A stretch of 64,000 nt of DNA from an uncultured Candidatus Binatia bacterium (GTDB taxonomy: Bacteria; Desulfobacterota; Binatia; Bin18): the NCBI GenBank assembly GCA_965214755.1, contig OZ243979.1, positions 2,691,251 through 2,755,250 of the forward strand, read 5' to 3'. The position numbers were made by a program, and so were the translations under genes. This document shows positions 8,133-36,683 of this stretch, piece by piece; the first letter of the stretch is position 1; each line of letters starts with the position of its first letter. A model generated the notes under the pieces. That model was not told the origin of the DNA, ran no database searches, and saw nothing but the letters and a program-made list of their open reading frames with translations.

Positions 8133-8232
8133 AATATCCTCCTGTTTTCTGCATTGTTCTGGCGTTTCTCTTGCCTGGTGTTGGGCCTTTTTCCCGCTCC
8201 CACTAGGAGAGCGGGCTTGCTTTGCAACTTGT

Positions 8233-8757: not shown

Positions 8758-8942
8758 CTGAGTCCCCCCTTGTGTAAACATTCGATCACGGTCAGGATCA
8801 GGCGGCTGAGCCAACCGGACTGTTAGCGTCTTAGCTTACATCGGAGTGATCGACAAGGATGAGGACCCATCGGTGTGGTCAGGCGGGTGAAGAGCCCGGC
8901 TGACATGCCGAAAGCGGGTGTCAGCGTTAAGAGGAGGATTCC

Positions 8943-9191
8943 TTGGACTCGCCAAAAATTGAGTATCCCTGCACCTGGTCGTTCAAGATCATTGGTTCCG
9001 ATGCCGCGCAAATAACGGATGCCATAGTCGCTCTGCTTGAGGCGTTCGAATATCAACTCGGCGAATCGCGCCACAGTCGAACCGGGAAATACACGTCGTT
9101 TAATCTCTCCGTTCACGTCAAGAGCGAAGAAGAGCGGCTGGCCATATTCAACGGCCTCAAGCATATTCCGAGTGTCAAAGTAATCCTGTAA
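8943..9191 (+). CDS. DUF493 (YbeD-like, UPF0250) small protein
   Basis: 82 aa. YPCTWSFKIIGSDAAQITDAIVALLE...HIPSVKVIL matches the YbeD pattern (FP.xFxxKviG ... VkmVL). Confidence 0.6.
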   Translation: MDSPKIEYPCTWSFKIIGSDAAQITDAIVALLEAFEYQLGESRHSRTGKYTSFNLSVHVKSEEERLAIFNGLKHIPSVKVIL

Positions 9192-9225
9192 GTAAGAAGA
9201 CATCCGTCAAATAAGGAGACTCCGT

Positions 9226-10455: not shown

Positions 10456-10735
10456 CGTCCGCAATGAGGATGCAGTTCCGTAGGCTGGCGCGTTTCACGC
10501 GAGGCTGTCGCCCTGCCGTTCCGCGCCCATCATACCGGACGTGATCCGGCATCCAGCGGCCAAGGGCGGGGAGCCAGGATGCCCGCTTGCGTCGGAATGC
10601 CAGCAGGGATCGGCTGGCTATACGGAATCGTCATTTGCTCTAGGTCGTTCAGACCTCCCAGTCTGAATGCGGCCAGTCACTTGACTTTGAAGAAGTGTGT
10701 GTCGGAGCATCTGGCCTGAGCGATTACCCGCAATT

Positions 10736-10770
10736 GTTGACAGGGACAAGCGGGATGCTATGGGGCAGAA
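10736..10770 (+). promoter_or_regulatory. sigma70-like promoter candidate in 600-bp intergenic gap (TTGACA ... TGCTAT)
   Basis: ttgacagggacaagcgggatgctatgggg: -35 TTGACA, about 18-nt spacer, then a TATGGG/TGCTAT-like -10. No ORF with RBS downstream until hpaB at 11060. Confidence 0.2.
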
Positions 10771-11059
10771 GTATGGGTTGATGCAGAGCCGCACTCGGGC
10801 AAAGGTGTTGCTCAGATCGATTCAGGTTGGGCGAGCGAGTATTGCCCCTGCTCGGCTGTCGGAAAAATTGGGGTGGGGAAACTATGGGAGACCTGCGGAC
10901 ACTCCGGGCTGATTCCTGAACCACCACTCGCTCATCGTATCGATTCAAGAGGAGAAAACCGTGCAACAATCGACACATAAGGCCCCGCTCTTGACACCCT
11001 AGGACAATCCCGGCGGCAACGGTCAGGATTTACCCCAGCCTGACAATGCCCCGCCCCGA

Positions 11060-12040
11060 GTGGTACGCGAGCCACCAACCGGCGAGGAATTCCTCGAAGG
11101 ACTCCGTGACGGACGGATCATCTATTTCGATGGTGAATTAGTCAAGGATGTCACCACCCATCCAGCCTTTGTCACCAGTGCCCGCTCGTATGCCCGCATG
11201 TATGACACGCTCCACGACCCGGAGAAGCATGACCTCTTGACCTACGTGACGGAGCGGGGGGCCCGTTCACACAAATTCTACAAACTCCCACGGACTCATC
11301 AAGACCTGTTCGAAGCCCGGGATGCCATCGCGGAGTGGGCACGCTTGAGCTGGGGCACCCTGTCGCGTGGACCTGACTATAAGGCGGCGTTGCTCGGAAC
11401 TTTGGCCGGCGATGTGGATTTTTATGGGGAGTACGGTCCAAACGTGCCGCGTTGGTATGAGAAGATCGCTGACGAAGTCATGTTCGTCAATCTGAGCCTG
11501 GTCAATCCGGCCGGCGACCGTTCAAAACCGCCGGCCGAGCAGCGCGATGTCTATATGCACATCGTTAAAGAGCGTGACGCTGGCATTGTCGTGCGTGGGG
11601 CACGTATGGTCTCCACCGGGGCCGCCTTCAGCCATGTCACCTATATGAGTCAGTATATCCAGCCGGCTGGGCTGGTTGAGGGCGAAGAGGACTTTGCGAT
11701 CGGATTCTTCGTGCCCTTCACTGCTCCCGGCCTCACCTTCATGGGGCGGTATTCCTACGAACATCTGGCCAAAAAGATTGGCTCTCCCTTTGACTATCCG
11801 CTCTCCAGCCGGTTTGACGAGTCCGATCTGAGCATCGTACTCGACGATGTGTTTATCCCCTGGGAAGACGTGACCGTGTACGGTAATCCTGCGGTTGTGA
11901 ACGGCCTCTTCCCCCGTGGTTTTGCTCAGCGGTTTGCCTTCCACGCCGCGGCCCGGACGGCAGTCAAGCTCGACTTTATCTGCGGCTTACTGCTCCAGGC
12001 GACAGAAATGCAGCAGAAGACCGGCAAGCGCGAGGGATGA
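11060..12040 (+). CDS. 4-hydroxyphenylacetate 3-monooxygenase oxygenase-component family (HpaB-like), N-terminal 326-codon fragment
   Basis: GTG start. [32 protein letters not shown] closely parallels the HpaB N-terminus ([31 protein letters not shown]). Ends prematurely at QQKTGKREG*. Confidence 0.7.
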   Translation: [326 protein letters not shown]

Positions 12041-12576
12041 TCGGTGAGTTGCTCGGTATGCGGCACAACATCTGGGCACTGTCCACAGCAATGGCGGCGG
12101 ATGCCGAGCCTGGACCAGGAGGCTATCTGCTGCCAAAGACCGAGTATGCACTCCAATGGCGTAACATTTACGGGGATACTTTTAGTAAGGCGCGAGTCCT
12201 ATTCCAGAACCTGCTCTCCGGCAACTTGATCCAGATCCCCTCCTCAGCCCGGGATTTTAAGAACCCGGCCACTCGGCCGTTACTTGATCGTTACTGGAAA
12301 GGGGCCACCGCAACAGCGGAGGAACGGGTGAAACTCCTGCGCGTCATCTGGGATTTATTTCTGACCGAGTTCGCTGGCCGCACAGAGGCTCACGAGCGTA
12401 ACTTCGCTGGCGGTTATGAAGCCAATCGGGTCGAGACCTATCAGGCAGCCGAGCATTCGGGTCTGAATGCCTCGATGAAAGCGATGGTCGACGAGTGTAT
12501 GAGCCCCTATGATCTCGACGGTTGGACCCATCCCACTTGGGCAGATGTGCCCTGGTCACTCCCGGATGCAGAATAG
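12037..12576 (+). CDS. HpaB-like C-terminal 179-codon fragment (continuation of 11060..12040 in another frame)
   Basis: GELLGMRHNIWAL...LIQIPSSARDFKNPA...MVDECMSPYDLDGWT aligns with HpaB EKIGEMVAWRNLFWAL...LIYLPSSARDLNNPQ...MVDRCLSEYDQDGWT. Different frame from the N-fragment. Confidence 0.7.
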   Translation: MIGELLGMRHNIWALSTAMAADAEPGPGGYLLPKTEYALQWRNIYGDTFSKARVLFQNLLSGNLIQIPSSARDFKNPATRPLLDRYWKGATATAEERVKLLRVIWDLFLTEFAGRTEAHERNFAGGYEANRVETYQAAEHSGLNASMKAMVDECMSPYDLDGWTHPTWADVPWSLPDAE

Positions 12577-12631
12577 GAAGTTTCGTAGGGTGGGTGGAAG
12601 CTCACGCCTATTCTTCTTTGCGCGCCCGTTC

Positions 12632-13726
12632 TCACCAACTGCCTTTGCGCTGAGAGCCGCCCGGTCCGCTATAGGATGCGGTATAGCCCGGCTCCTGCCG
12701 GAACAAATCTTTCGGAATCGAATGCACCGCCCGCGTCCAGGCGGCGACTAGACGATCCTCAGCCGCATAGTCAAACGGATCTTGCAGCATCGTTTCCTCC
12801 CGCCCCCCATATGCTAATGGATGGTCACGTAGCCAGACCGCCGCCTGTTTGATGCCCTCAACTGGCGAGACAATATCCCGATAGCCGAGCTCTGATTTGA
12901 TTTTGGTCAGATCAAACATTCGGTGGGTCGTCCAGGGTTGTGAGATTAACGGTCTGGCGCTGACGGCCAGCTCATATGGCATCGAAATAATCTCCCACTC
13001 GTAACCGAGCGCTTCGGCACATAGTTGCACGACTTGCTTTAGGGTTAAGACATGATCATCACCACAGTTATACACCTGCCCGGTGGCAACCTCGGGTTGA
13101 TCCACGGCCAACAGCAGAGCGTGAGCGGCGTTGGCAGCAGCGCCGGAGTGGTTCAGCGATAAACCGTCGTCCGGGAGGATGATAAAAGGCCGCCGGTCCA
13201 AGATGCGACGGACAATGGGCCATTCGCGTGGAACAACTTGATAGGCGCCATAGATTTGGGGATACCGAAAATGCGTAGCGTTCGGGTGGTGTTTGAAAAC
13301 CACTTCTTCCGAGCGATACACCCGGTAGCCTTTGCCATCCTCTGCTTCGCTCGTAGTCTTGACCGCGTCCTCCCCAACGGGTACAGGCAGTCCCGGCGGA
13401 TGGACCATATCCGCGTTCATAAAGCCCCGGTAGGCAGGGCCTCCCCCGACCGAAATAAACCGCTCCGTCCGACCGACCATAATCTCAGCCACCCGCCGTA
13501 AGCGGCCGTACATGGCCAGGGTTATATCAAAATGGGAATCACCCAGGACACTCATGAGCGCCTGCTCATCGAACGGGTTGGTATGAATGTGGACCACGGA
13601 TGCGGGAATCTCCTCCACTTCGTGGTTACCCGTGTGCAAGATAGACACCTCGAATCCGCGCGCAATCAATCCATTCACGACAAAGTGACCGGTTGGTCCG
13701 GTCCCGCCGATAACCAAGGCTCGCAT
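12632..13726 (-). CDS. NAD-dependent epimerase/dehydratase family protein (extended/atypical SDR)
   Basis: MRALVIGGTGPTGHFVVNGLIARGFEVSILHTGNHE is a Rossmann GxxGxxG N-terminus. 364 aa, typical of NAD(P)-binding epimerase-like proteins. Confidence 0.65.
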   Translation of the reverse strand: MRALVIGGTGPTGHFVVNGLIARGFEVSILHTGNHEVEEIPASVVHIHTNPFDEQALMSVLGDSHFDITLAMYGRLRRVAEIMVGRTERFISVGGGPAYRGFMNADMVHPPGLPVPVGEDAVKTTSEAEDGKGYRVYRSEEVVFKHHPNATHFRYPQIYGAYQVVPREWPIVRRILDRRPFIILPDDGLSLNHSGAAANAAHALLLAVDQPEVATGQVYNCGDDHVLTLKQVVQLCAEALGYEWEIISMPYELAVSARPLISQPWTTHRMFDLTKIKSELGYRDIVSPVEGIKQAAVWLRDHPLAYGGREETMLQDPFDYAAEDRLVAAWTRAVHSIPKDLFRQEPGYTASYSGPGGSQRKGSW

Positions 13727-20131: not shown

Positions 20132-21475
20132 ATGCTGTTTGGCTATTTTACTGAGCGGCCGTATCGCTGGGTCAACGAAGACGAAGTGCTTGAGCACAGG
20201 GGATTCTTTGCCTTGCCCAACTCGCGCTTTGACCGCGACAAGGCCGCCGATGACTATAATTTTTTTCTGGACGAATACTGCTATGCCGAAGAAGTCGGCT
20301 TCGATGCGCTCATGCTGAACGAGCACCACGGGAACCCCTTCTGCATGGGCAGCGTCATGAATGTCGAAGCTTCCATCCTGGCGCGTATTACCAATAAAGC
20401 CAAGATCGTCCTGATCGGCAATCCGTTGCCAGTGCTGAAGCACCCACTGCGCATGGCCGAAGAGTTGGCGGAAATCGATCTGATCTCGCGCGGGCGCCTC
20501 GTGACCGGCTGGGTGCGTGGGGCCGGCAGCGAGCAGTTCTTTAATAATGCCAACCCGGCCTATAACCGGGAGATGTTCAACGAGGCCCACGACTTTATCG
20601 TGCAGGCCTGGACCAAGCCGGGGCCGTGGCGTTACGAGGGCAAGCATTTTCACTATCGGCATGTGAATCCGTGGGCCTTACCCTACCAGAAGCCGCATCC
20701 GCAAATGTGGATTCCCGGTGTACTGAGTCCGGAGACGGTGCACTGGGCGGCCCAGCATAACTACCCCTATCTGGCCCTGGTGACCGCCCTGAGTCCAACC
20801 TGCGACCTGCTGGACTATTACGCCGATACCGCGGCGGAAAACGGCTATCAGGCCGGCACGGAAAATTTTGCCTATTTGATTGGGGTATTCTGCGCGGACA
20901 CGGATGAAAAAGCGCAAGAGCTGGGCAAAGGATTTGTATGGGGTGGCGGAGCAAGTGCCTTCTCCAGACCGGAACACACCCTCCCGCCAGGCTATAATTC
21001 CAAAAACGCCATCCGCCTGCTTGCCCAGCGTCCGAGCGGCGGCTGGGTCGGAGTTGATTCGGACCGGCTCAAGGAGGCCCAGCAGGGCCGGAGAAAAAAG
21101 AAGAGTGCGAACCTGGATGAGGTCCGCCAAAAGCTGGAGAAATCGTATAAGCGCGCCCAGGACGACTACCTGATGATCGTCGGCTCGCCCAAGACGGTCA
21201 TTGAGAAGATCAAGACCATGATCCGCGTGCTGCGGCCAGGAACATTCGCCTGCTTCCAGGTTCAAGGACCAATCGGCAACGAGGACCGGATGAACAGCAT
21301 CCGTCTGATGGGCCAGGAGGTCATTCCCGCGGTCAAAGAATACGCCAAGGAAATCGACCTGGTCGATCAGTTCACCCGCGTCCCGGGCTCGGTCAAACTC
21401 ACGCCGGGCACACGCCGCCTGCCGGTCGTGGACCGCACGCCATTAAAGGACCTTGGCATGCAGCCGAGTTCGTAG
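20132..21475 (+). CDS. LLM class flavin-dependent oxidoreductase
   Basis: GFDALMLNEHHGNPFCMGSVMNVEASILARITNKAKIVLIGNPLPVLKHPLRMAEELAEIDLISRGRL is an LLM TIM-barrel. Paralogous to 9226..10455. Confidence 0.7.
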   Translation: MLFGYFTERPYRWVNEDEVLEHRGFFALPNSRFDRDKAADDYNFFLDEYCYAEEVGFDALMLNEHHGNPFCMGSVMNVEASILARITNKAKIVLIGNPLPVLKHPLRMAEELAEIDLISRGRLVTGWVRGAGSEQFFNNANPAYNREMFNEAHDFIVQAWTKPGPWRYEGKHFHYRHVNPWALPYQKPHPQMWIPGVLSPETVHWAAQHNYPYLALVTALSPTCDLLDYYADTAAENGYQAGTENFAYLIGVFCADTDEKAQELGKGFVWGGGASAFSRPEHTLPPGYNSKNAIRLLAQRPSGGWVGVDSDRLKEAQQGRRKKKSANLDEVRQKLEKSYKRAQDDYLMIVGSPKTVIEKIKTMIRVLRPGTFACFQVQGPIGNEDRMNSIRLMGQEVIPAVKEYAKEIDLVDQFTRVPGSVKLTPGTRRLPVVDRTPLKDLGMQPSS

Positions 21476-21627
21476 GACGGATTTCCCCTCACCGGTGGAG
21501 GGCCGGACAACCACAGTGGGTTGCCCCTACCTTTTATCCCCTCTCCCGCTGGGAGGGAGCCAGGGTGAGAGTTCCTCTTGTGGACACGGTTTGACCAGGG
21601 TGCTTCTGGTCGCTACTTTGCTTATGT

Positions 21628-21921
21628 ATGAGAGCGGTCGGAATAAAAGTACTGAACAGTCGGTTGAGCGAATACGTGCGGCTGGCTGCATCGGGCGAGA
21701 CCGTTCTGGTCACGGACCGCGACCATGTTGTCGCGGAAATTGGTCCCCCGAGAGAAACCAGAAGCCCAATTCTCGCCGATGCACTGCTGGCCGCGGCCGT
21801 GCGCAGGGGATGGCTGACGCCGCCGGCGCTGCCCGCCACGGGGGAGCCTCCGACGCCGCAACGAGTTGCGCCGTTACGCACTCTTCTCGGCGAATTGGAC
21901 GCCGATAGAAGCCAACGGTGA
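21628..21921 (+). CDS. type II antitoxin, Phd/YefM family
   Basis: MRAVGIKVLNSRLSEYVRLAASGETVLVTDRDHVVAEIGPP is a Phd/YefM-like N-terminus. 4-bp overlap with the downstream PIN gene. Confidence 0.6.
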   Translation: MRAVGIKVLNSRLSEYVRLAASGETVLVTDRDHVVAEIGPPRETRSPILADALLAAAVRRGWLTPPALPATGEPPTPQRVAPLRTLLGELDADRSQR

Positions 21922-22304
21922 TCTACCTCGATACCTCTGTTGCGCTCGCCCAACTTCTGGCGGAGGACCGACGCCCACCAGCCTCGCTTTGGGACGATAC
22001 CCTGACGGCCAGCCGATTGATGGAATACGAGGTCTGGACCCGGATTCATGCTCGCGGGCTTGCGGATTCATACGGCGAGGCCGCGCGCGGGCTCATCGGA
22101 CGGGTCGCGCTGCGGGAGCTATCCCCACCAGTGCTCGCGCGCGCCCTGGACGCCTTTCCCGTACCCGTCCGCACGCATGACGCCTTGCATCTGGCGTCAT
22201 GCGACTACCTGCGCAACCAAGGTCAATCGGTCTCGCTTGCCAGTTACGACCGCCGTATGACCGCCGCGGCCCATGCCCTGGCCCTCCCTGTCTACGACCT
22301 GTAA
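21918..22304 (+). CDS. vapC: type II toxin VapC (PIN domain)
   Basis: GTG start. IYLDTSVALAQLL..., HDALHLASCDYL, and the C-terminus ...AAAHALALPVYDL fit the PIN fold. Confidence 0.7.
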   Translation: MIYLDTSVALAQLLAEDRRPPASLWDDTLTASRLMEYEVWTRIHARGLADSYGEAARGLIGRVALRELSPPVLARALDAFPVPVRTHDALHLASCDYLRNQGQSVSLASYDRRMTAAAHALALPVYDL

Positions 22305-22585
22305 CCTTCCTGAACCGCACGACAGCTTACAGCCGGAACATGGTTCGCCTTTATACCACTCTACAGTGGCCCACAGCAGCTTCACGCAAGCGTGAGCGCT
22401 CTCCGACCCACTAGCGAGCCAGAGCGCTCATTTGTCATACCCTCTCCCTTGCCGCGTATGCAGCATCAAGGCATCTTAACGGAGGACATGATACAAATCG
22501 GGAGTCAGAGTCATTCGGACATTGCAGTTTTATCGTGGAAAGCCGCTGTCGCTTTGGTGGCGTCCTGTACCATGTCGGCAACGCC

Positions 22586-23913
22586 ATGATGCCAAGCCAG
22601 TTTATTACCAAGTGGCGCGTCTCAGAGTTGAAAGAACGCTCCGCGTCGCAAGAGCATTTCGTCGACCTGTGCCACCTGCTGGGTGAACCCACACCCGCCG
22701 AAGCCGCCTCCACCGGCGACCACTACTGCTTCGAGCGCGGTGCGCGTAAAGACACCGGCGGCAAGGGCTGGGCCGACGTGTGGAAGCGCCACCATTTTGC
22801 TGGGAGTACAAGAGCAAACGCAAGAATCTGGACGCAGCTTTCAATCAGTTGCGGCAATACGCCTTGGCGCTGGAAAACCCGCCGTTCTTGATCGTGTCGG
22901 ACATGGCGCGGTTCCGCATCCGTACCAATTGGACCAACACGGTCAGCCAGACCTATGAGTTCGAGTTGGACGGTCTCACTGACGCGGCTAATCGTGACAA
23001 GCTTAAATGGGCGCTATCCGACCCTGAGCGTCTACGGCCGGGCGAGAGCTGCCGGGCCCTTACCGAACGCGCAGCAATGACCTTTGCCTCGTTGGCGCAA
23101 TCGTTGTGCGAGCGCGGCCACGAGAGCCATGTTGTTGCGCATTTCGTCAATCGCCTAGTGGTCTGCATGTTCGCCGAGGATGTCGGCCTGCCACCGAACG
23201 ACATGTTCACTCGGATGCTGGAACAGGCCCACAAACAGCCCGAAGCGTTCGCCACTCTGGCCCGTGTTCTATTTGGGGCGATGGCCACGGGCGGCCTAGT
23301 CGACTTTGAGGCCGTGGCGTAGTTCAACAGCGGGCTGTTCGACGACAACACCGCCCTGCCGTTGGAGAAAGCCGACATTGACACCGTGCGCTCGGTGGCA
23401 GCGCTCGACTGGTCAGAGATTGACCCCTCAATTCTGGGTACGCTGTTCGAGCGCGGGCTTGACCCGGACAAGCGCTCTCAATTGGGCGCACACTACACCG
23501 ACCGGGATAAGATCATGCGGATTATCGAGCCGGTAGTGATCCGGCCTTGGCTGGCCGAGTAGGAAACTGCGAAAGCCGAGATCGTGTCCAGTCTGGAAAA
23601 GGAAACTGCCGCCAAGTCAGCCTCCGCACAGACCCGGCGGCGTAGACAGGCCAGACGCTTTCTGAGGGAATTCGTCGATCGGCTGCGGTCCTTCCCTATA
23701 CTCGACCCGGCCTGTGGTTCGGGCAATTTTTTGTATCTCGCCCTCCAGGCACTCAAGAATATTGAGCACCGGGTGCAGTTGGAGGTTGAGGCGTTCGACT
23801 TAGAGCGGGAGTTTCCCAAGGTCGGCCCGGCTAATGTCAAGGGAATTGAGATCAACCCATACACGGCGTGGCCTGTGGTGCGGCTCTTGAACCATTCGGG
23901 GCGTTCTCGATAA
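22586..23913 (+). pseudogene. MmeI-family (type IIL R-M / BREX PglX-like) N6-adenine DNA methyltransferase, N-terminal ~440 codons, disrupted and 3'-truncated
   Basis: FITKW..ELKERSASQEHFVDLCHLLGEPTP...GGKGWADVWKRHHFA | WEYKSKRKNLDAAFNQLRQYALALENPPFLIVSDMARFRI is the MmeI/PglX N-terminal module. A -1 frameshift near 22797 (expected ...HFAWEYK). An in-frame TAG at 23320 replaces the Y of the conserved (P)YFNGGLF motif (here VA*FNSGLF). A second in-frame TAG sits at 23560. SAM motif I FPILDPACGSGNFLYLAL is present. The ORF ends before motif IV (NPPF), so it is truncated. Confidence 0.65.
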
Positions 23914-23963
23914 ACGGCAGGCATGCTTCGGTTTGCGTTGACGACAAATCAGGGTAGGCTGGC

Positions 23964-24491
23964 TTGAAATTAAGCAAGCTACGGCGGGTAAAAGGCATGG
24001 TTAGCGATCAGACTCGAAACACCATTTGGCAAGGACTGTTGGATATGGCAAGGCTTGTCCGTTACTACGAAAGCCTGTCCGACCGGCATCGACGCAAGCA
24101 TTTTTGGATTCGCATCGTGCTACTTGCCGCGGCGGCTAGTGGTATTGCTGCCTTGCTTGATCTGTTTCCAGAGGTCATTCAGATTGTTGCCGGCGGTCTG
24201 GTCGCCCTATGTGTCGTATGGGATTTCGTGTCAGACTACGCAAAAAAAGCGGCCATCCTGCACGCAATCAGCATTGAATGCAGTGCTCTAGAGGTCGAAT
24301 GACAAGACTTGTGGGGCGATCTTGAGAACCTCGACGACACGGAGGCTCGACAACGCAACACCCGCCTGTCACGGAGACTCACCGAGGTCACCGGATGGGC
24401 GGGGCATACCGATATTCAAGAAGACCCAAAGCTGAATGAAAAATGCGAAGCCGCAGCCTACCGGGTGATGCAGGATCAGTATGGCGTCTGA
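23964..24491 (+). pseudogene. predicted 2-TM membrane protein (SLATT-like effector, tentative) interrupted by in-frame TGA at 24300
   Basis: LVRYYESLSDRHRRKHFWIRIVLLAAAASGIAALLDLFPEVIQIVAGGLVALCVVWDF has two predicted TM helices after an amphipathic N-terminus. The downstream ORF 24309..24491 is in the same frame, separated only by TGA. Confidence 0.3.
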
Positions 24492-24911
24492 CATGAGAAG
24501 ACGTACAGCCTCAGGGAAGCCCGCAAGGCCGGGTAAGACGCCACCACCTCCCCAGACCCAAGCCGGAGCAGGGCAAACCGAAACCCAACCAAGGCAAAAA
24601 GTAGCCCCTAGAGTTATTGCCGAAACCGACGGCTAGCACAGTTTTCACAGAGGTGTAGCGGGTAGGCGGCAAGCGTGTGAAGCGGGCAGCACCACTAGGC
24701 CGGAGGGCCTAGGCGAGCGGATTCGCTGGCCCTGCGGGAGCGGGTGGGAGCAGATCGGGAGGCGGGACTCCCGACCGCCGAGGGGCCCACAAGTAGCGGG
24801 TGCGTCCGGCGTGGGTCCGCCGCCTGCTACAGCGCTCCCGAGCGAGCGGCCACGTGGCCCCGCAGCGCCGGCCGCCGTTAAGCTAGTCCTCCCTACCACA
24901 GGAGGTGAGCC

Positions 24912-26046
24912 ATGCCTATTGATCTCGATACGTTCCTTGTCGCACTCTATACCATTGTGGACGATCTGTACCAGCAGCAGGCGGCCCCGGCCAAGCCGGT
25001 GCGCCGCGGTCCTCGGCCGACGGTGTCGGACAGTGAGGTGTTGCCCCTGGCGCTGTGTGCACAGTGGTGGGGGCGTTCGGAGCGGGCGTTCGTGCGCTAT
25101 GCGCGGGCGCAGTGGCGCACGTATTTTCCGCGCTTCCTCAGTCAGAGTGCATATAACCGGCGGTGCCGGGACTTGGCCGGGGTACTGGTGGCGCTGGTGC
25201 CAGCGGTGGCGCGGGAGCTGTGCGCGGCGAGGGCGGCGTATCAAGTGCTGGATACGGTGGCGGTCCCCTTGCTGCGCCGTTGTCGGGGGTGTCGGCGGCG
25301 ACTGTTTGGGGACGAAGCGGCCCTAGGGTGGGGTGGGAGTGATAAGGACTGGTACTATGGCTGTAAGTTGCTCTTGGCGGTACTGCCGAGGGGCGGGGTG
25401 ACGGGCTTCGTGCTCGCGCCAGCCAGTACCGAGGACCGCTGGCTGGCGGACGCCTTGCTGGGCTGGCGCGTCGCCCCCATGCCCGGCCCCGCCAGCGGCA
25501 GGACTTGCTCCGGCCACCGCGGGCCAACGGGACCCCGTATGTGGAGCCCACCGGGCCGCGGTGGCCGCAGTTGGGAGCCGGGGTCCCCAGCACGGGTCCC
25601 TATCTGGCCGATAAGGGCTTCTCGGGGGCGGGGTGGCAAACGCATTGGAAGCAGGACTATGGAGCACCCGTGCTCACGCCCCCGCAGGCGCGGGGTACAA
25701 CGTGGGCAAGACATTGCGGGCATCTTCAGGACTGACACGCCCCCGCAGGCGCGGGGTGCAACGCGCCACCGCTCCTTCTCCACCTCTTCGACCGGCCACG
25801 CCCCCGCAGGCGCGGGGTGCAACGAGTGCTCACGCCAAACGCCAACATAGCCGCTGGCGCCAGATCGTCGAGACCATCAATGGGCACCTCACCCGCACCT
25901 TTGGCTTGCACTTTCCAGGCGCCCGCACCCCCCACGGCTTACTGACGCGCATCGCGGCCAAGCTCGCCGCCGTCAATCTCGGCCTCTGGTTCAACCGTCT
26001 CTTCGGCCGCCCCCCATTGGCCCTCGCCACCCTCTTCCCTGCCTAA
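24912..26046 (+). pseudogene. IS982-family DDE transposase, disrupted (three frames)
   Basis: MPIDLDTFLVALYTIVDDLY...RRGPRPTVSDSEVL...WYYGCKLLLAV... | ...YLADKGFSGAGW...YGAPVLTPP | ...RWRQIVETINGHLTRTFGL...TRIAAKLAAVNLGLWFNRLFG match the IS982 pattern (M..L.ELF..i.c..DDF; DKGY; LiTP.rkN; IEt.F..LK). An extra GC-rich segment with a 14-bp inverted repeat (25512-25525 / 25553-25566) and a 122-bp repeat-spacer insertion break the frame. Confidence 0.75.
25675..25824. CRISPR. ectopic mini CRISPR-like array: 3 x 28-nt repeat (CACGCCCCCGCAGGCGCGGGGTGCAACG) + 2 unique 33-nt spacers, embedded in IS982 transposase ORF
   Basis: Repeats at 25675-25702 (one A/G variant), 25736-25763 and 25797-25824. Spacers are tgggcaagacattgcgggcatcttcaggactga and cgccaccgctccttctccacctcttcgaccggc. 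Period 61 bp. The repeat has the CCCCGC-loop-GCGGGG stem and a 3' ...CAACG tail like type I-E repeats. One repeat copy is native coding sequence (TPPQARGAT). Confidence 0.45.
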
Positions 26047-26092
26047 CAATGTGCATCACACGTACTGGGAGGGAGGCAGGATGAGAATTCCC

Positions 26093-27250
26093 CTACACCG
26101 GAGCCTCATGCATGCGCCAGGACTTCTTTCCCGCCGGGAGATTGAACAGCTTGGCGGCATTCTCCCGCATGATGTCCTGGCGTTGCTCCTCTGTGATATG
26201 GGCCGCGTGGTCGGCCAGTAGTTGCTGGGAGCGCGGCCAGGTGGAATCCGTATGCGGGAAATCACTGGCCCACAGCAATTGTTGGTGCGGCATGATATCG
26301 ACCGCATGAAACGCGGTCGGGTCGTCTTGGAAGGTCATCCATACATTGCTCTTGATATATTCGCTGGGAAGTTTTGACAGGCCGTCAATAATCCCGCCCT
26401 CGGCGTTAATCCTGGCGGCGTGGTCCATGCGATACATATAATGCGGCATCCAGCCGGCGTCGCCCTCGGCACACACCAGTTTCAATTGCGGATGACGCTC
26501 AAAGACGCAACCCAAAACCATGAGACCGACAACATCCTGGACGGCCCGGATGATGCCCAGAAAATTGTTCATCTCATGGCCTCGATGCGGCATGTTCAGG
26601 CTGCCGTCCCGCGAGGTCAGAATATGAAAACAAATGGGCAGTCCCAGGTCGGTTGCGCACTCCCACAGGGCGTCGTAGTCGGCGTGGTCATAGTCTTCGT
26701 AGATGGGCCGACCCGGCATCATCATGCCGACCATGCCCATGTCCTTGGCGCGCCGGAAATCCTCAATCGCGCTGTCTACGTTCAGGACCGCGGTCTGTGC
26801 CAGACCCAGGATGCGGTTCGGCGCTTCGCTGCACGTAGCCTGTAGCCAGCGGTTATAGGCCAACATGCAGGCGTTCTTATAGTCCGGGTCCCGGTGCATG
26901 CACAGACCCATCCCAATGGAGGCGTAGATGGCTTCAGCCGCAATCCCGTCCTGGTCCATATACGGAATTCGCGCCTGACCGCCATAGGCCCCCTCACGAA
27001 TATCAGAGAACCTGACTTTTTTTGCGCGGTTGTTGCGCTCCGTGACCGTGAAGCCGGCACCATCAATGAATCCCAGGGGAATCGGACGCTTCATGCCGTG
27101 TACGACAAAGGCGTCCGTACCATCGGGTTGTTCCACGATACGCGGGGCGACGGCGCGGTATTTTGGCTCAATATAGTCGATGTAACAATTGGCTGGCTCA
27201 CACACATGGCCGTCGGCTGAAATGATCCCTGCCGGTATCTCTTGCATCAT
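26093..27250 (-). CDS. amidohydrolase family protein (amidohydrolase-2; paralog of 1029..2138)
   Basis: MMQEIPAGIISADGHVCEP, ...WASDFPHTDSTWP. RBS GGAGAG before ATGATG. Same architecture as the first amidohydrolase. Confidence 0.7.
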   Translation of the reverse strand: MMQEIPAGIISADGHVCEPANCYIDYIEPKYRAVAPRIVEQPDGTDAFVVHGMKRPIPLGFIDGAGFTVTERNNRAKKVRFSDIREGAYGGQARIPYMDQDGIAAEAIYASIGMGLCMHRDPDYKNACMLAYNRWLQATCSEAPNRILGLAQTAVLNVDSAIEDFRRAKDMGMVGMMMPGRPIYEDYDHADYDALWECATDLGLPICFHILTSRDGSLNMPHRGHEMNNFLGIIRAVQDVVGLMVLGCVFERHPQLKLVCAEGDAGWMPHYMYRMDHAARINAEGGIIDGLSKLPSEYIKSNVWMTFQDDPTAFHAVDIMPHQQLLWASDFPHTDSTWPRSQQLLADHAAHITEEQRQDIMRENAAKLFNLPAGKKSWRMHEAPV

Positions 27251-27412
27251 TCTGTTGCTCTCCGTTCCAGATCGGATTGAGGATTACATACAAACGCTTG
27301 CGGCCCAGAGTACGGAAACAGCGGCTTCTTTTCAAGGAAGACAGGAGAAACCGTGATTTCTATAGGGACTTGTGGTAGGGGGGACAGCCACACAACGCAC
27401 TGGAGGAGGGCC

Positions 27413-30857: not shown

Positions 30858-33800
30858 TCACTCGAACGAGGCTAGCAACCCTTCAAGCCGTTTACGGGTT
30901 GCGGATTGGACCCGAGAGATTCCAATAGCTTTCGCTATATCCCGCATAGGCTCCGCTGCTCCTGTCTCCTTCACATTCTGAATGAGTGCTCTTAATTCTT
31001 CTTGACAGATTTCCTCAGCCGACCGATAGGCGTCTTTGTCCTCAGGGGCTCTAAAGATTGTCCATTTGTCCGGCTGCGCTCCCGCAGGCCAGTAAAATTT
31101 TCTCTGGTCTTCTGTGCTAGTCTGAAACTTCTTCTTCTGTGCAATAGTGCGGACTCGGTCCTGTATTAATCTTCCCGCACGCTGAAAGCCGTGCGCACGC
31201 GCTACGCGTTTGATGAGGAGATCCTCGTGTATCGGTCCTTCGACCTCAATAATACGTGTGATGAGCGCAGAGAGTATTTGGGTATAGCTCTTTTCCTTGA
31301 ACGCTTCTGGACTGATCTGATCTTCAAACTCACTGAGATCGGTCGCTCGATAAACGGTTTTCAAAAACTGTCTATCTCCTGGAGCTGATCCAGCTCGTGA
31401 GGCCGTCAGTTCATACTGTTCACTCGGCTGCTTTTTTAACATTGTGTCGGCCTGCTCTTCGGCTTGAGCACGCGCGGTATTCAGTAGTTCCTCCAAGGCA
31501 TGCTGGAGCTTCTCCGTCGCACCAACTGGGTCAATCCACCAATCGGTTGACCATATCCTGAGGATGTTCCAGCCGAGTCTACGGAGTACCTGTTCCCTTA
31601 CCTTGTCACGATCTCTTGCCGTTGCAGATCGATGATAGGTTGCGCCATCGCACTCTATCCCGGCAAGGTATGCTCCTGGATTGTCAGGGTGTACCACGCC
31701 GAGATCGATCCGAAAGGCCGATACACCGATCTGACTCTCAACCCTCCAGCCCTTAGCCCGTAGACGATTGGCAACCGCTTTCTCAAAGGGGGAGTCATAC
31801 CCACCAACTGAACCATGGACGGCTTCTGCTAATGCATGCGGCCCACGCTCCGCATATTCCATGAAGTGCTTTAGGTCCCGTACTCCAACAGCTTGGGTGC
31901 GTGACAAATCAATCTGCTCAGGTCGGAAGCTGGAAAAAACGACGAGCTCGCTTCGGGCACGAGTAATAGCAACGTTCAGACGACGCTCCCCACCCTCTTT
32001 ATTCATTGGCCCAAAGTTCATCGTCATATGCCCCGTGCGATCAGGCCCATAGGTGAGCGAGAAAAACATGATATCGCGCTCGTCCCCTTGGACGCTTTCG
32101 AGGTTCTTTACAAAGACAGGCTCTGTAAGATCATCCGAGAAGAACGGCTCAATCTGCGGGGACTTGCGCCGTTCATTGTCCAGTAAATCCTCTATCAAGC
32201 GCTGTTGCTCCGAGTTAAATGTCACAATGCCAATAGATTTCTGTGGGTTGAGGGGAAGCTGATTCTTCAACCGTTCAACCACCTCAGCTACCACCGCTTG
32301 TGCCTCTATTGCATTGGACCGTGCCCTAGCCCGTTCATATACGGCATCTTCAACAAAACGAAATTTCACCGCGGTATCCTCGGTTCTCGCCGAGGGAAAT
32401 GTGATCAAACCGCCACTATAGTAATGGTGATTAGAGAATGCGATGAGACTTTCGTGCTCACTACGATAGTGCCAGTTGATCTTATGCTCCGGTAGACTGG
32501 CTCCGAGACACTCATCCAGGATGCTTTCCAGGTCGCCTTCCAGATCAACCTCTTCGTCTGCCTCTTCATCGGAGCGATTAAAGAAGCTTGTTGGGGGAAG
32601 CTGTTTGGGATCCCCAACAATCACCGCGTGCTTAGCCCGTGCGATAGCACCAATGGCATCCCAGATCGTGATTTGAGAGGCTTCATCAAAGATCACTATA
32701 TCGAACTGCGCCTGACCTGCGGGGAGGTATTGCGCTATCGAGAGTGGACTCATGAGCAGGCATGGGGTTAGCTGAGGAAGAGCGGTCGGCATCTCTGTGA
32801 CAAGTTGCCTGAGTGGCTTATGACGCTGTCTTTTCTCCAACTCGCGTTTCAGTATGCCGAACTCTGATCCACGCGCGACGTCATTTTTGGATGGTAAATC
32901 GCCACTCAAACGAGCTCTGATATATTGCCGAGTGATTACGGAGAATTTGTCATCGAGTGCGCGGAATTCCTTAACCGTTGCTTCATGCTCGGCAGAAACA
33001 AAGGTTCTGAGCACCTCGTCGTTATCCACAACTGCATTGATCCACCAGCGTGCATAGTTGGTCTCAAAAGCTTGCTCCACACCGCCCAGGTCAATTCCCC
33101 CATTCTCCAGTGCAAGGATGAGATTTTCGAGGCCCAACTCGCTTGCTTCATTTCGCACTCTCCGCCAAGCACACCATGTGTTCAATTTGGCCTTATTATG
33201 GATGATTACGGACAATGATACGTTTGTATTTGAGAGCCAATCCTCCAGTTCTCCTTGGCCAAGCCGGTCAAACGCCTCATTACCGGCGAGAGAGGCGAAT
33301 TTTCTGAGTTGATTTTGAAAGTTACTCCACTCTTTTGAAAGCCTCTGGCTAGTGCGCCCAATCTGGCTGGTATCTTCTAATAGATCATTGCCGTCCTCAA
33401 GCAATCTTTTGAGCTTGGCGCGGATCTCAACCAAACTGTCTGTATCCTGTCCTAGTGCTGCAATGGCACGACGAATTTTGCATGCAATTTCCAGTTCTTC
33501 TTGGACCTGGGACACTTCCGTGTTGAAGCCTTCCCACACAGCGACTGCAGATAACCTTTCCTCTAAGCTCGCCAGCGTCTGTCCAAAAGTTCTTAAAGAA
33601 TCAAAAAGAGCTAAATCTTCTGCAACGTCTGGTGTATGTCGTGCGCCACCAGCAGATCGCAGATCTTTTCTTATGAAAAGTTTTTGAAAGAATGACAGTG
33701 GCCACCAGGTGCGAATGGCGGCTTTCCAACGCGTTGCGAGATCGTCAATAGGGATATTTTGCCACGCCTGTTCGGCATAACTCCCCGAGAGTTGCTGCTC

Positions 33801-36683
33801 AGTCTTCCGGTATTCCTGAAGAGCCGTACATGCCTGCTCAAGCGCAGAAATAGTCTGTCCAGCACCGGACTCAGCCGCGTAGCCCATGTGTCTTCTGAAA
33901 CATAGTGGGAGGACTTCAGCCAACTCAGCGAGAGCCATTAATTGATCGTAGTTGTGGCCCGTGGATGAAAGTCCCAAGTCCAATGCAAGAGTGGCGACAG
34001 GCTCTACAAGTGCTTTCGCTGTCCGCGAGAGGGTTGCACAATGGACGAGCAGTTGTTCCTGCCAACCGGGTGACCAATCGCTTGTATGGACACTACTAAG
34101 CGGACTACCGGAAATCTCGCCAAGTTCTGCCACATTGATATCAATCCGGTGGACTACCTCCCTCAGTTGGTCTAAGTCTTCGGAACTGTGCGTATCTGGA
34201 TGTGACCACTGGAGAGAAACAAATGGCATACTCTCGTCGTGGACAATGCGGCCCATAGCGAGATAGGGTGTCAGGCCGTTCGCATATTGATGATGAAGCC
34301 GCTGGACAAATCTATTCAGCTTGTCACGATGTTTCTTCAAACGCCCTGCTTCTGTTTTCCACTCGTGAATGGTGTGGGCGCCTGACCGATCCCATGCCTG
34401 TCTTAATTGCTCCAACACGGCAGTCTTCCGTGCTTTGTTTGAATGCAGTTCCAGGCAGAATTCGCCAAGACCAACCTCCCTGAGGCGTCTATACACCACA
34501 TCAAGTGCAGCAATTTTTTCAGAGACAAAAAGGACTTTGCGTCCCTCTGCAAGATTATGCGCAATCATATTCGCAATAGTCTGAGACTTGCCTGTCCCTG
34601 GCGGGCCAAGAAGAACGAAATCCTTTCCCTTTGCGCAAGCAAGCACCGCTGAGAGCTGTGAAGAGTCCGCAGGCAACGGGGTTAAAATATCTGCCGGACT
34701 GTACCTCTCGTCTAAGGTCTCTGGATTAGGAAATTCTATTTCACCGGCGTACGGATCGCGAGGCGTTTCTATTAAATGCCGAACAATATCATTTTCCTTA
34801 AGATGAGCGGTACGATCGACTAAATCTTTCCACATCAAATATTTTGCGAACGAAAACAGGCCCAGGACAATCTCCTCAACGACCTCGAAGCCTTGAACCT
34901 CTTTCACTTCCTGTCGAACTTTGTTCCAAACGAGAGTTACGTCTATACCATGGCTATCTTCGGGAAGTGCTCCATCGAAGCCTTTGATGTCTAAATTAAA
35001 ATCCTGCCTCAACATTTCTAACAGCGTAGTATTGAATCTGGGCTCGTCATCGTGGAGAGAGAGGCGGACGCCTGATCGGACACTTTTTCGCTCCAAGGTC
35101 ACGGGAATGAGAATCAGTGGTGCCCGGAATTTACGATCCGAACTATCGTCTTTTTTCCAAACAAGAAAACCGAGAGCGAGGAACAGAGTGTTCGACCCGC
35201 CTTCTTGTAAATCACTACGTGCGGTTCGGAATAGTTCCACCAGCCGACTCTCCAACTCCTTTTTATCAAGTTCGACGAGCAATTCGTCCCGTAATAAAGC
35301 TGCTTTTGCGTACTCTTCTGTCAGATGCTCGCCGGTTCGCTGATGATGTAAGGTGCTGGAGCGGCCGTCTTCAACCTCCATATTAGGCGCTGACACGATT
35401 TTCATCTTCTTACCGTCAGCTAAGCGGTCTTCCAGCGTGCTAAGGTCTGGACAAAAAATCTTTACTGACTTTTTCGTCGCGCGGAAATTCAACAAGCGAT
35501 TACGTAAAGAAAGATCAAGCAGCTTTCTCTGCCATCGATCCAACCGGGTCTGTGGCGAAGTTTCCTCAGGTTGTATTTCTCCAATTGGGGTATCAAAATC
35601 CGGCAGACCCTCTGGTGCAGCTTCGAGTGGGTCGTCTCGATGCGCTACCGCTGACTCAGTACTGCCCTCTGCTTGTGGTGCCTGACTGGCAAGCGGCCTC
35701 ACCCTTTGCATCCGAGCACGACGAATATCCGTCGCCAAGATAAAGTCCTGCTCACGCTCTTCTGCAATCTGCCGCTTGGCTTCGTCAATCGCTGCAGAAA
35801 AAGGTGCGGGAGGGTGGTTTGTTGCTAATGTTGTCTCAAAAACTAACAATTCCTTTAGATCGATCCGTTTTCGAAGAGTACTGGCCTCATCCACAACGAG
35901 CTTGGAAAATTGCTCTGGCTGGAGCCACGCACCGGCAAAAGCGTGTCCTGCGATGAAGACAAGGATAGGGTTGAAGCCTGCTTGTTCTAGAGTGGCTGCC
36001 AAGAATAGCGCCAAGTCAAGACAAGTGGCTCTACCAGAATCAATAATTTGAGACGGTAAACGAATTTTCTGCCCAGTTGTCTCAAAGCTCGCTGGTGGAA
36101 GTGCGTAATCGAGCCGAAGGCTCGTGAGCGCTGACCAGATGGCTGAGATGATTTCCCAAACCCGCTGTCGAGAACCAGAGGTGTAGCCGTCAATGTGAGG
36201 TGGCCTTCCAGCCTGTCGCAGAATTTCACTCGTACTTTTGAGAAGCTTATCCACAGCCGGATCGTTGCTGGCGCAAAAGGCTGCCAGCAACTCTGGCATA
36301 AAATGAACGCCTCCCCACTCGTTATGCGCCAGCAGTTCAACAGGCTGCGTGGCCGAAGCGAGCCCGGTTGAATCGTTATCCTTAGTATGGAGGGTAAAGC
36401 GAGCGTTTCCAGAAACTGCTTCATTGAGGCCTAACAGATATTCCCCGCTCAGCATAATATCCAAGTCATCTAGGTGCAGGATATCATCGGTTCGCAAGCA
36501 GTCGATTGTCCAGTTTCTTGGTGTGAAAAAAATTGGGTCGGATGAGAACTCCAGAGTCAGATTCTCATAGTCAGACTCTGAGACGTTATGAAGAGACAAC
36601 TCTCTAATAAGCGGTACCGAGTTTTGATGCGACGCAAAAGTGATCTTCTTGGCAACGGTTGCGCAAATTTGAATACCGCTCAT
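30858..36683 (-). CDS. giant DUF4011 - SF1 (Upf1-like) helicase - DUF559/Vsr-like PD-(D/E)xK endonuclease - DUF3320 protein; Hhe-like single-gene antiphage candidate
   Basis: 1941 aa, uninterrupted. DUF4011-like RKLLDLSLRNRLLNF. Walker A LLGPPGTGKSQTIANMI. Helicase motifs VIVGDPKQLPPT, SVQGDERDIMFFS and NVAITRARSELVVFSS. C-terminal nuclease ...IDLGVVHP...GIECDGATYH...LRRLGWNILRIWSTDWWIDP. Terminal DUF3320-like region. Gene GC is clearly lower than the flanks. Confidence 0.7.
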   Translation of the reverse strand: MSGIQICATVAKKITFASHQNSVPLIRELSLHNVSESDYENLTLEFSSDPIFFTPRNWTIDCLRTDDILHLDDLDIMLSGEYLLGLNEAVSGNARFTLHTKDNDSTGLASATQPVELLAHNEWGGVHFMPELLAAFCASNDPAVDKLLKSTSEILRQAGRPPHIDGYTSGSRQRVWEIISAIWSALTSLRLDYALPPASFETTGQKIRLPSQIIDSGRATCLDLALFLAATLEQAGFNPILVFIAGHAFAGAWLQPEQFSKLVVDEASTLRKRIDLKELLVFETTLATNHPPAPFSAAIDEAKRQIAEEREQDFILATDIRRARMQRVRPLASQAPQAEGSTESAVAHRDDPLEAAPEGLPDFDTPIGEIQPEETSPQTRLDRWQRKLLDLSLRNRLLNFRATKKSVKIFCPDLSTLEDRLADGKKMKIVSAPNMEVEDGRSSTLHHQRTGEHLTEEYAKAALLRDELLVELDKKELESRLVELFRTARSDLQEGGSNTLFLALGFLVWKKDDSSDRKFRAPLILIPVTLERKSVRSGVRLSLHDDEPRFNTTLLEMLRQDFNLDIKGFDGALPEDSHGIDVTLVWNKVRQEVKEVQGFEVVEEIVLGLFSFAKYLMWKDLVDRTAHLKENDIVRHLIETPRDPYAGEIEFPNPETLDERYSPADILTPLPADSSQLSAVLACAKGKDFVLLGPPGTGKSQTIANMIAHNLAEGRKVLFVSEKIAALDVVYRRLREVGLGEFCLELHSNKARKTAVLEQLRQAWDRSGAHTIHEWKTEAGRLKKHRDKLNRFVQRLHHQYANGLTPYLAMGRIVHDESMPFVSLQWSHPDTHSSEDLDQLREVVHRIDINVAELGEISGSPLSSVHTSDWSPGWQEQLLVHCATLSRTAKALVEPVATLALDLGLSSTGHNYDQLMALAELAEVLPLCFRRHMGYAAESGAGQTISALEQACTALQEYRKTEQQLSGSYAEQAWQNIPIDDLATRWKAAIRTWWPLSFFQKLFIRKDLRSAGGARHTPDVAEDLALFDSLRTFGQTLASLEERLSAVAVWEGFNTEVSQVQEELEIACKIRRAIAALGQDTDSLVEIRAKLKRLLEDGNDLLEDTSQIGRTSQRLSKEWSNFQNQLRKFASLAGNEAFDRLGQGELEDWLSNTNVSLSVIIHNKAKLNTWCAWRRVRNEASELGLENLILALENGGIDLGGVEQAFETNYARWWINAVVDNDEVLRTFVSAEHEATVKEFRALDDKFSVITRQYIRARLSGDLPSKNDVARGSEFGILKRELEKRQRHKPLRQLVTEMPTALPQLTPCLLMSPLSIAQYLPAGQAQFDIVIFDEASQITIWDAIGAIARAKHAVIVGDPKQLPPTSFFNRSDEEADEEVDLEGDLESILDECLGASLPEHKINWHYRSEHESLIAFSNHHYYSGGLITFPSARTEDTAVKFRFVEDAVYERARARSNAIEAQAVVAEVVERLKNQLPLNPQKSIGIVTFNSEQQRLIEDLLDNERRKSPQIEPFFSDDLTEPVFVKNLESVQGDERDIMFFSLTYGPDRTGHMTMNFGPMNKEGGERRLNVAITRARSELVVFSSFRPEQIDLSRTQAVGVRDLKHFMEYAERGPHALAEAVHGSVGGYDSPFEKAVANRLRAKGWRVESQIGVSAFRIDLGVVHPDNPGAYLAGIECDGATYHRSATARDRDKVREQVLRRLGWNILRIWSTDWWIDPVGATEKLQHALEELLNTARAQAEEQADTMLKKQPSEQYELTASRAGSAPGDRQFLKTVYRATDLSEFEDQISPEAFKEKSYTQILSALITRIIEVEGPIHEDLLIKRVARAHGFQRAGRLIQDRVRTIAQKKKFQTSTEDQRKFYWPAGAQPDKWTIFRAPEDKDAYRSAEEICQEELRALIQNVKETGAAEPMRDIAKAIGISRVQSATRKRLEGLLASFE

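Follow-up and report, generated by a model that had tools for sequence, protein, structure and literature searches.

The window analysed here, a 64,000-nt stretch of contig OZ243979.1 from an uncultured Candidatus Binatia bacterium, carries on its forward strand, between positions 22586 and 24491, two damaged genes: the N-terminal part of a type IIL restriction-modification (RM) gene of the MmeI family (22586..23857) and a gene of 164 codons for a SLATT-like protein with two transmembrane (TM) helices (23997..24491). Neither of these defence genes can yield a full-length product, and the islet they make up is therefore non-functional. In all probability, the stretch was acquired horizontally as a small defence islet and is now disappearing through ordinary mutational decay. 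An earlier interpretation, made from the letters of the DNA and their translations (the sequence-only reading), had proposed the erosion of a former island consisting of an RM or BREX-like system and a membrane effector. The RM gene and the two-TM gene of that proposal stand, both being intact in a related Candidatus Binatia genome (OY729511.1, locus L005), and its BREX component falls.

The frame of the MmeI-like gene opens with ATG ATG at 22586 and runs as MMPSQFITKW...VWKRHHFA, after which it continues in the -1 frame as WEYKSKRKNLDAAF (WEYK...). One base has been lost at this point (22800..22801, + strand), where the window reads GC/TGG and relatives read GCC TGG, their homologous proteins being encoded in a single frame (...HHFAWEYKGK...). 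The deletion falls between D64 and E74-x-K76 and splits the nuclease motif (HFA/WEYK). Farther along the same strand there are two in-frame TAG codons, both of them TGG-to-TAG changes: codon 245 (23320..23322; VA-stop-FNSGLF, in relatives VAWFNGGLF) and codon 325 (23560..23562; LAE-stop-ETAKAE, in relatives LAEWETAKAE). At both positions Trp is found in 11 of 11 Binatia homologues. The last conserved motif to be kept is methyltransferase motif I, DPACGSGNFL (23704..23733, + strand), which aligns through L005 with DPACGCGNFL of MmeI (PDB 5HR4). The frameshift, the two amber codons and motif I had been placed correctly beforehand, as direct reading confirms. The ambers had also been taken to lie at conserved positions, and they do; the first of them had been regarded as the Tyr of a YFNGGLF motif, a residue that is Tyr in MmeI itself and Trp in the close relatives. 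Homology to the relatives stops past ...KGIEINP, at about 23857, from where the open reading frame (ORF) enters unrelated sequence and ends at 23913. What is left is approximately 424 codons, the N-terminal 45% of the gene, reaching from the nuclease domain through the helical spacer into the beginning of a gamma-class N6-adenine methyltransferase domain.

The stitched and frame-corrected product (442 aa) matched the Pfam families MmeI_N (43.2 bits), MmeI_hel (47.1 bits) and MmeI_Mtase (48.5 bits) in that order, with a gathering cut-off of 27 bits for each of them, as well as the PADLOC model REase_MTase_IIG (PDLC03627) at E = 1.4e-136 over model positions 3–471 of 1136. The nuclease motif D-x(8-9)-E-x-K is kept as D64...E74-Y-K76, aligned through L005 with D...E-M-K of MmeI. 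The catalytic motif IV is gone from the window copy; L005 retains it as GNPPFLG. The intact L005 protein possesses MmeI_N, MmeI_hel, MmeI_Mtase and MmeI_TRD (the latter at 30.7 bits), and its match to the sequence of the MmeI crystal structure 5HR4 (E = 1.3e-46) spans the nuclease motif, motif I and NPPF. With the MmeI prototype (PDB 5HR4; Morgan et al. 2009, PMC2731913; Callahan et al. 2016, PMC4833311) the window copy shares the order of a D...ExK nuclease, a helical spacer and a gamma-class methyltransferase with motif I DPACGxGNFL, and the 945-aa homologue in L005 likewise has the NPPF motif and the MmeI target-recognition domain. The window copy differs from the prototype by its frameshift, its two amber codons and the loss of everything past residue ~424, and it should be noted that MmeI itself is only distantly related to the subfamily found here. 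Enzymes of the MmeI family cut approximately 20 nt from an asymmetric site, the host being protected by methylation of a single strand (PMC2731913). The window copy is a remnant of a member of this type IIL/IIG family, not a functional member.

The sequence-only reading had pointed to related genomes as the place to look for an intact version, and L005 carries both genes intact between the same flanks, in the order LLM oxidoreductase, MmeI-like gene of 945 codons (8001–10838), two-TM gene of 164 codons (11084–11578) and amidohydrolase, the last on the opposite strand. Three blocks are aligned by blastn: window 22418–23856 with L005 7833–9272 (78% nucleotide identity), window 23856–24634 with L005 10943–11729 (94.5%) and window 26063–27341 with L005 11835–13100 (91.6%). 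According to these blocks, the junction sequences and a three-way alignment, about 1.67 kb (L005 9272–10943) are missing from the window at 23857..23858. The junction lies inside AAC/CCATACACGGCG and has a microhomology of a few bases only. Lost with this segment were about 1566 bp from the 3' end of the RM gene, including motif IV (NPPF), the target-recognition domain and the C-terminus, and some 105 bp of intergenic DNA. When the full L005 protein was compared with the 64-kb window by tblastn, residues 1–428 alone were matched, and the C-terminal 517 residues were found nowhere. That everything after motif I is missing had been seen earlier, and the similarity does end there; the correction is that a single deletion is responsible and that it reaches into the intergenic region.

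The LLM oxidoreductase flank is common to the window, L005, L006 and L010. Flanking genes of the window also occur in L006, L008 and L010, where the cargo 3' of the MmeI-like gene is a different one, which marks the site as a variable slot for defence genes. For the RM alleles of the window and L005, synonymous divergence (dS) amounts to 1.06, as compared with 0.27–0.31 for the flanking genes. The alleles are much older than the split of their hosts, which indicates replacement of the RM allele at a fixed chromosomal slot and not vertical descent. In the same slot, 3' of an intact MmeI-like gene, L006 has an ORF of 79 aa, another of 327 aa and a multi-TM protein of 229 aa (10923–12761), and L010 has a protein of 194 aa (10982–11566).

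The second gene of the islet starts at ATG 23997, as judged from intact homologues of 96–97% amino acid identity (P0121 with 63 member sequences, L001 and L005). Two ORFs, 23964..24302 and 24309..24491, had been recognised as one frame broken by a TGA, and intact homologues indeed read TGG there: the stop is codon 102 (24300..24302, + strand) and replaces a Trp of a conserved E-W-x-x-L-W motif, as seen by codon comparison with L001 and L002 and in the family alignment. An AlphaFold model of the protein (mean predicted local distance difference test score, 80.8) has helices at residues 4–53, 59–107, 114–137 and 144–162, arranged as a hairpin of two long helices followed by two C-terminal ones. 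Hydropathy places the TM spans at approximately residues 35–57 and 60–78, with peaks centred at 44–52 and 59–72. The product truncated by the TGA, 101 aa in length, would keep both TM helices and lack the two C-terminal helices.

A resemblance of this protein to SLATT-type effectors had been suggested. SLATT domains, reportedly described by Burroughs and colleagues in 2015, are SMODS and SLOG-associating 2TM effector domains. The Pfam scan of the window protein matched no family, and the NCBIfam scores were below threshold, with 25.1 bits for SLATT_1 (cut-off 41) and 21.1 bits for SLATT_4 (cut-off 55). Weak NCBIfam matches of this kind recur across the family, SLATT_1 in 53 of 54 members (best E = 5e-8) and SLATT_4 in 33 of the 54, and they are seen again in more distant members; Pfam SLATT_1 was matched by 12 of them (best E = 1.3e-4), and no tested member reaches a curated SLATT cut-off. 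At E <= 1e-3 an exhaustive profile search returned 1117 clusters (50% identity), and the matches listed were almost all about 165 aa long. Against the PDB, a fold search with the model gave no significant match (best E 0.18, to generic helical bundles), and a profile search against PDB sequences gave no match. Genes for SMODS/CD-NTase, SLOG, reverse transcriptase or TIR proteins were absent from the neighbourhoods in L001, L002, L005 and L082–L087, and the SLATT-like gene was solitary or stood among unrelated genes, some of them defence genes, in the eight loci inspected. The family thus has in common with SLATT domains (NCBIfam NF033634 and NF033632; Pfam PF18181) a small all-helical build, with a helix, two TM helices and C-terminal helices, but differs in its below-cut-off scores, its usually solitary genes and the lack of the classical SLATT gene association. 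Of the suggested resemblance, then, the two TM helices hold, and the assignment is remote. The protein appears to belong to a divergent, uncurated SLATT-like family, not to be a validated SLATT member, and by analogy it would be inferred to perturb the membrane.

Two further candidates around this gene were considered and rejected. One was that its TGA is shared with a second copy (L002; P0150, 112 aa), which has TGG at this position and carries an independent frameshift further downstream. The other was that a small Pro-rich ORF overlapping the SLATT-like stop (24481..24636, + strand) is a partner gene. Its frame differs among the window, L001 and L005, is not conserved and is missing at distant loci, and the ORF is probably not a gene.

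Several measurements bear on whether the decay is genuine and how recent it is. At residues that are invariant in 11 relatives, the RM copy of the window deviates in 31 of 280 cases, for example G to S in FNGGLF and L to P in GLLP, as compared with 4–12 for intact copies. Its lineage-specific changes are divided into 38 nonsynonymous and 34 synonymous, those of intact copies being 31:46, 18:29 and 21:28 and those of another pseudogene, L070, being 19:7. It had been argued beforehand that the nonsense codons are unlikely to be sequencing indel artefacts, a view borne out by the replacements at invariant residues, by the intact syntenic genes of L005 and by the position of all stops at Trp codons. 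Transitions from GC to AT account for 43 of the 72 lineage-specific changes (60%; 25 C>T and 18 G>A). Since all three stops are TGG-to-TAG or TGG-to-TGA changes, deaminase-like or otherwise unusual mutagenesis was considered and rejected: the GC-to-AT bias is an ordinary one, with a similar spectrum in intact copies. In the SLATT-like gene the ratio of nonsynonymous to synonymous substitution rates (dN/dS) is 0.05–0.13, and 3' of the TGA there are zero nonsynonymous differences from L005, from which the nonsense mutation would be very recent.

Some observations weigh against decay in the form proposed. The pairwise dN/dS of the RM remnant is not raised, with 0.10–0.11 against intact copies and 0.07–0.12 among the intact copies themselves. 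Inactivation must therefore be recent relative to total divergence, and on these estimates most of the divergence predates it, so that the decay is fairly recent, not ancient. Data at the level of an assembly leave base-calling error or polymorphism within the population possible at any single site, chiefly at the lone TGA. The SLATT-like scores lie below curated cut-offs, which makes the effector function a putative one. In addition, the 101-aa product with its two TM helices may have residual activity.

The last point leads to the alternative that the remnants still function in a reduced form, the two-TM fragment as a membrane protein, or the neighbouring toxin-antitoxin (TA) cassette (described below) together with the fragments as a new module. 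It would be in keeping with the retention of both TM helices, with the recurrence of shortened family variants in databases (P0150, P0204, P0208, P0211–P0213) and with the intact state of the Phd and VapC genes. However, the lost C-terminal helices hold some of the most conserved residues of the family (L105, W106 and N147), and the other shortened copies stem from different, independent lesions, so that random loss fits better than a selected short form. We consider a reduced function improbable.

Another possible explanation is that the stops and the frameshift are errors of sequencing or assembly and that the genes are really intact. The single TGA sits in a gene otherwise under clear purifying selection, and the bases are those of an assembly. 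This explanation is nevertheless very hard to reconcile with the absence of 1.67 kb of the RM gene and of its 517 C-terminal residues from the window, or with the 31 replacements at invariant residues, the G-to-S change in FNGGLF included. Moreover, errors do not typically take the form of three substitutions plus a 1-nt deletion outside a homopolymer, all within 1.5 kb, and we give errors as the general cause very little credence.

Equally slight is the chance that the methyltransferase remnant is what is left of the PglX of a BREX system and not of a stand-alone type IIL enzyme. The sequence-only reading had left the label open between MmeI and PglX and named a profile comparison with these families as a check. 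PglX has in common with the remnant the motif I region of gamma-class N6-adenine methyltransferases, around which weak local matches to PglX models were indeed obtained, but these reached only 21.6 bits for BREX_2_MTaseX (cut-off 400) and 15.8 bits for BREX_6 (cut-off 900), whereas the three MmeI-specific Pfam domains pass their thresholds. The MmeI-type nuclease domain is not known from PglX, and the intact gene of L005 has the MmeI nuclease motif and matches 5HR4. Genes for the BREX partners PglZ, BrxC/PglY, BrxA/B and BrxL were not found beside the RM gene in either the window or L005, the neighbours there being the SLATT-like gene, a TA pair, an insertion sequence (IS) element and genes of metabolism. 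The MmeI half of the label is thus upheld by significant similarity, and the PglX half is dropped.

Weakest of all is the notion that the in-frame stops are decoded (by an altered code, pyrrolysine or selenocysteine insertion, programmed read-through or frameshifting) and the genes expressed: each of the three stops stands in place of a Trp, a wild-type SLATT-like protein would result from rare read-through by tRNA-Trp, and the TGA is followed by C, a context that is comparatively leaky in model bacteria, but TAG and TGA are ordinary terminators here, ending 15 of 19 Pfam-supported window genes (TAG 8, TGA 7, TAA 4), an Rfam scan of 21400–26200 matched no element and no CRISPR-DR family, which together remove recoding as an explanation, and even with read-through the RM gene would be without motif IV and the target-recognition domain.

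The MmeI-like subfamily is widely distributed. Our scan of GTDB genomes yielded 79 loci (L003–L081) encoding relatives, the closest of them (79–81% amino acid identity) in Candidatus Binatia metagenome-assembled genomes (MAGs) with intact genes of 945–953 aa. Relatives at 70–75% identity occur in Caldilineaceae, Latescibacterota, Azotimanducaceae, Alphaproteobacteria, Bryobacterales and others, and the subfamily as a whole is common to MAGs of at least six phyla (Binatia and Gammaproteobacteria among them) at 70–81% identity. Often two or three paralogues are present in one genome, as in OY761159.2 with L010, L025 and L070. The identities across phyla, the paralogues and the excess of RM dS (1.06) over that of the flanks (~0.3) indicate that horizontal exchange is frequent and that alleles are replaced at a fixed slot. 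Some of the MAGs with relatives, the SB0661 and RHO3 bins, are probably those of sponge symbionts.

Approximately 60 of 71 assessable GTDB loci are intact at 940–970 aa, and about 9–11 of the 71 are disrupted, among them L070 with a stop at codon 288 of its RM gene. The best 120 protein-database matches to the N-terminal remnant were all 453–774 aa long, many of them with frameshifted tails. Pervasive pseudogenisation of the subfamily was considered on this account and rejected in view of the intact GTDB loci. Intact proteins of ~950 aa exist in the same protein collection, collapsed into large clusters, and the short matches are probably an artefact of clustering that over-represents broken variants, although this does not explain them fully.

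Among the 79 MmeI loci a SLATT-like neighbour is present in L005 only, and the link between the two genes is therefore lineage-specific. The two genes adjoin each other in the window and in L005, and L001 preserves remnants of the arrangement: it has an intact SLATT-like gene and, ~950 bp upstream, no more of an MmeI-like gene than its last ~62 codons. Directly adjoining this end, L001 also has a fragment of a NotI-like endonuclease (Pfam NotI), the two pieces lying at 8147–8629 and 8643–8828. In L002 the SLATT-like gene carries the independent frameshift mentioned above. Neither L001 nor L002 has flanks related to those around the islet in the window; the pair has therefore moved as a unit, and its decay has occurred independently several times. 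A more far-reaching proposal is that the ~165-aa SLATT-like proteins are a stand-alone, single-gene family of membrane effectors missed by curated models and that, with the MmeI-like enzyme, they form in this Binatia lineage a two-gene cassette of the type "restrict, then abort"; that the cassette is a functional one we regard as doubtful.

On both sides of the islet, the window differs from L005 by insertions. The LLM gene is separated from the RM remnant by a TA block (~21587–22339) with a gene for a Phd/YefM-like antitoxin (21628..21921, + strand; Pfam PhdYeFM_antitox, E = 6.2e-5 and 23.1 bits, under the 29.8-bit cut-off) and one for a PIN-domain toxin of the VapC type (21918..22304, + strand; Pfam PIN, 24.7 bits with a cut-off of 23.6), the start of the toxin gene overlapping the antitoxin stop. 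The block has 88% nucleotide identity to L070 10901–11652, and the toxin 88% amino acid identity to the product of L070 11231–11614; in L070 the TA pair likewise adjoins an MmeI pseudogene. No copy of the cassette was detected by tblastn in L005, L006 or L010.

Downstream of the islet, 24642–26063 takes the place of the ~105 bp present in L005 and L001. Its first part is a GC-rich filler of ~240 bp (24642..24880; GC ~0.66–0.69), between the end of the L005 homology and the start of the IS, without a match in the fetched loci. The remainder is a degenerate element of the IS982 family (24880..26063, + strand), identified by the NCBIfam model transpos_IS982 in two pieces and by alignment with the intact copies L088 and L089. 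Besides lacking its left inverted repeat, the element has a transposase gene with a 122-bp insertion and with one nucleotide lost from a C-run near 25458; the intact relatives of this transposase are 335–337 aa long and 81–82% identical.

Taken together with the decay of the two defence genes, these changes give the following history, for which the sequences themselves show the anatomy, homology, synteny and lesions, while the biochemical activities and the membrane role are predicted from the families concerned. The islet occupies a conserved hot spot between the genes for an LLM-type oxidoreductase and an amidohydrolase in a Candidatus Binatia-like bacterium. In the ancestral state, to be seen in L005, its first gene encoded a single-chain type IIL enzyme of ~945 aa, in which a D-x9-E-x-K nuclease is followed by a helical spacer, a gamma-class methyltransferase and then a target-recognition domain. 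Enzymes of the MmeI type methylate one strand of an asymmetric site and cut unmodified DNA ~20 bp away, and by family membership the same activities may be ascribed to the ancestral protein. The second gene encoded the 164-aa two-TM SLATT-like protein, for which a role in membrane perturbation is predicted by analogy with SLATT effectors. In the window, the RM gene has lost 1 nt within the nuclease motif and has undergone two transitions from Trp (TGG) to TAG, and a 1.67-kb deletion by illegitimate recombination has taken away the target-recognition domain and the C-terminus as well as the NPPF motif. In the SLATT-like gene a single, recent transition has turned Trp (TGG) into TGA. Upstream, a Phd/VapC cassette has been inserted, and downstream ~105 bp have given way to a now-degenerate IS982 copy.

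The result is of a known kind, the ordinary and well-documented erosion of a small defence islet, and adds one more case of stand-alone RM genes and toxic membrane effectors being gained, swapped and eroded at defence hot spots. With a related genome keeping the intact state at the same site, it offers a before-and-after picture of such decay, and it places the two-TM protein in a large, uncurated SLATT-like family of ~165 aa.

The only item here that merits follow-up lies inside the IS982 transposase gene, where repeat detection and comparison with intact IS copies revealed a CRISPR-like mini-array (25675..25824, + strand) of three near-identical, palindromic 28-nt repeats, CACGCCCCCGCAGGCGCGGGGTRCAACG, and two 33-nt spacers. 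The repeats, CACGCCCCCGCAGGCGCGGGGT(A/G)CAACG, start at 25675, 25736 and 25797, with a period of 61 bp, and the two spacers are unrelated; the number of matches to such a repeat pattern expected in shuffled sequence is 0. Each repeat is built of 5 nt, CCCCGC, a 4-nt loop, GCGGGG and 7 nt. Type I-E CRISPR is alike in repeat architecture and in its 61-bp unit. The intact IS982 copies L088 and L089 contain the repeat segment once, and removing two 61-bp units from the window copy restores an open frame, ...YGAPVLTPPQARGATSAHAKRQHSRWRQIVETINGHL..., with a length as in P0219.

To our knowledge, only integration by Cas1-Cas2 duplicates a target of ~28 bp while inserting ~33 bp. Off-target integration yields neo-CRISPR arrays, as reported by Nivala, Shipman & Church (2018, Nat Microbiol 3:310), and these arrays have in common with the mini-array a native sequence of ~28 nt doubled for each unrelated insert of ~33 nt and a unit of 61 bp. 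Records of neo-CRISPR formation come to date mainly from engineered E. coli, and the mini-array differs in being located inside an IS982 transposase gene of a natural MAG. Other results speak against such an origin: there are no cas genes within the 64-kb window; the exact repeat had 0 matches in JGI metagenomes and the degenerate pattern single-copy matches only, with no array; and the spacer cores had 0 matches in IMG/VR and no second copy in the window. We see the chances as evenly balanced that the mini-array is a natural neo-CRISPR array, left by two off-target spacer integrations of a type I-E-like Cas1-Cas2 into coding sequence that resembles a repeat; this reading is better supported than that of a functional "restrict, then abort" cassette. 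If this is confirmed, the mini-array would document, as few natural sequences do, the ectopic acquisition of CRISPR spacers, with a bearing on the origin of new arrays.

Elsewhere in the window, some 6 kb from the islet, there is an apparently intact ORF of 1941 aa on the reverse strand (30858–36683), with DUF4011, a superfamily 1 helicase (AAA_11/AAA_12), an MTES_1575 restriction-endonuclease-like domain and DUF3320; this helicase-nuclease may also be related to defence.

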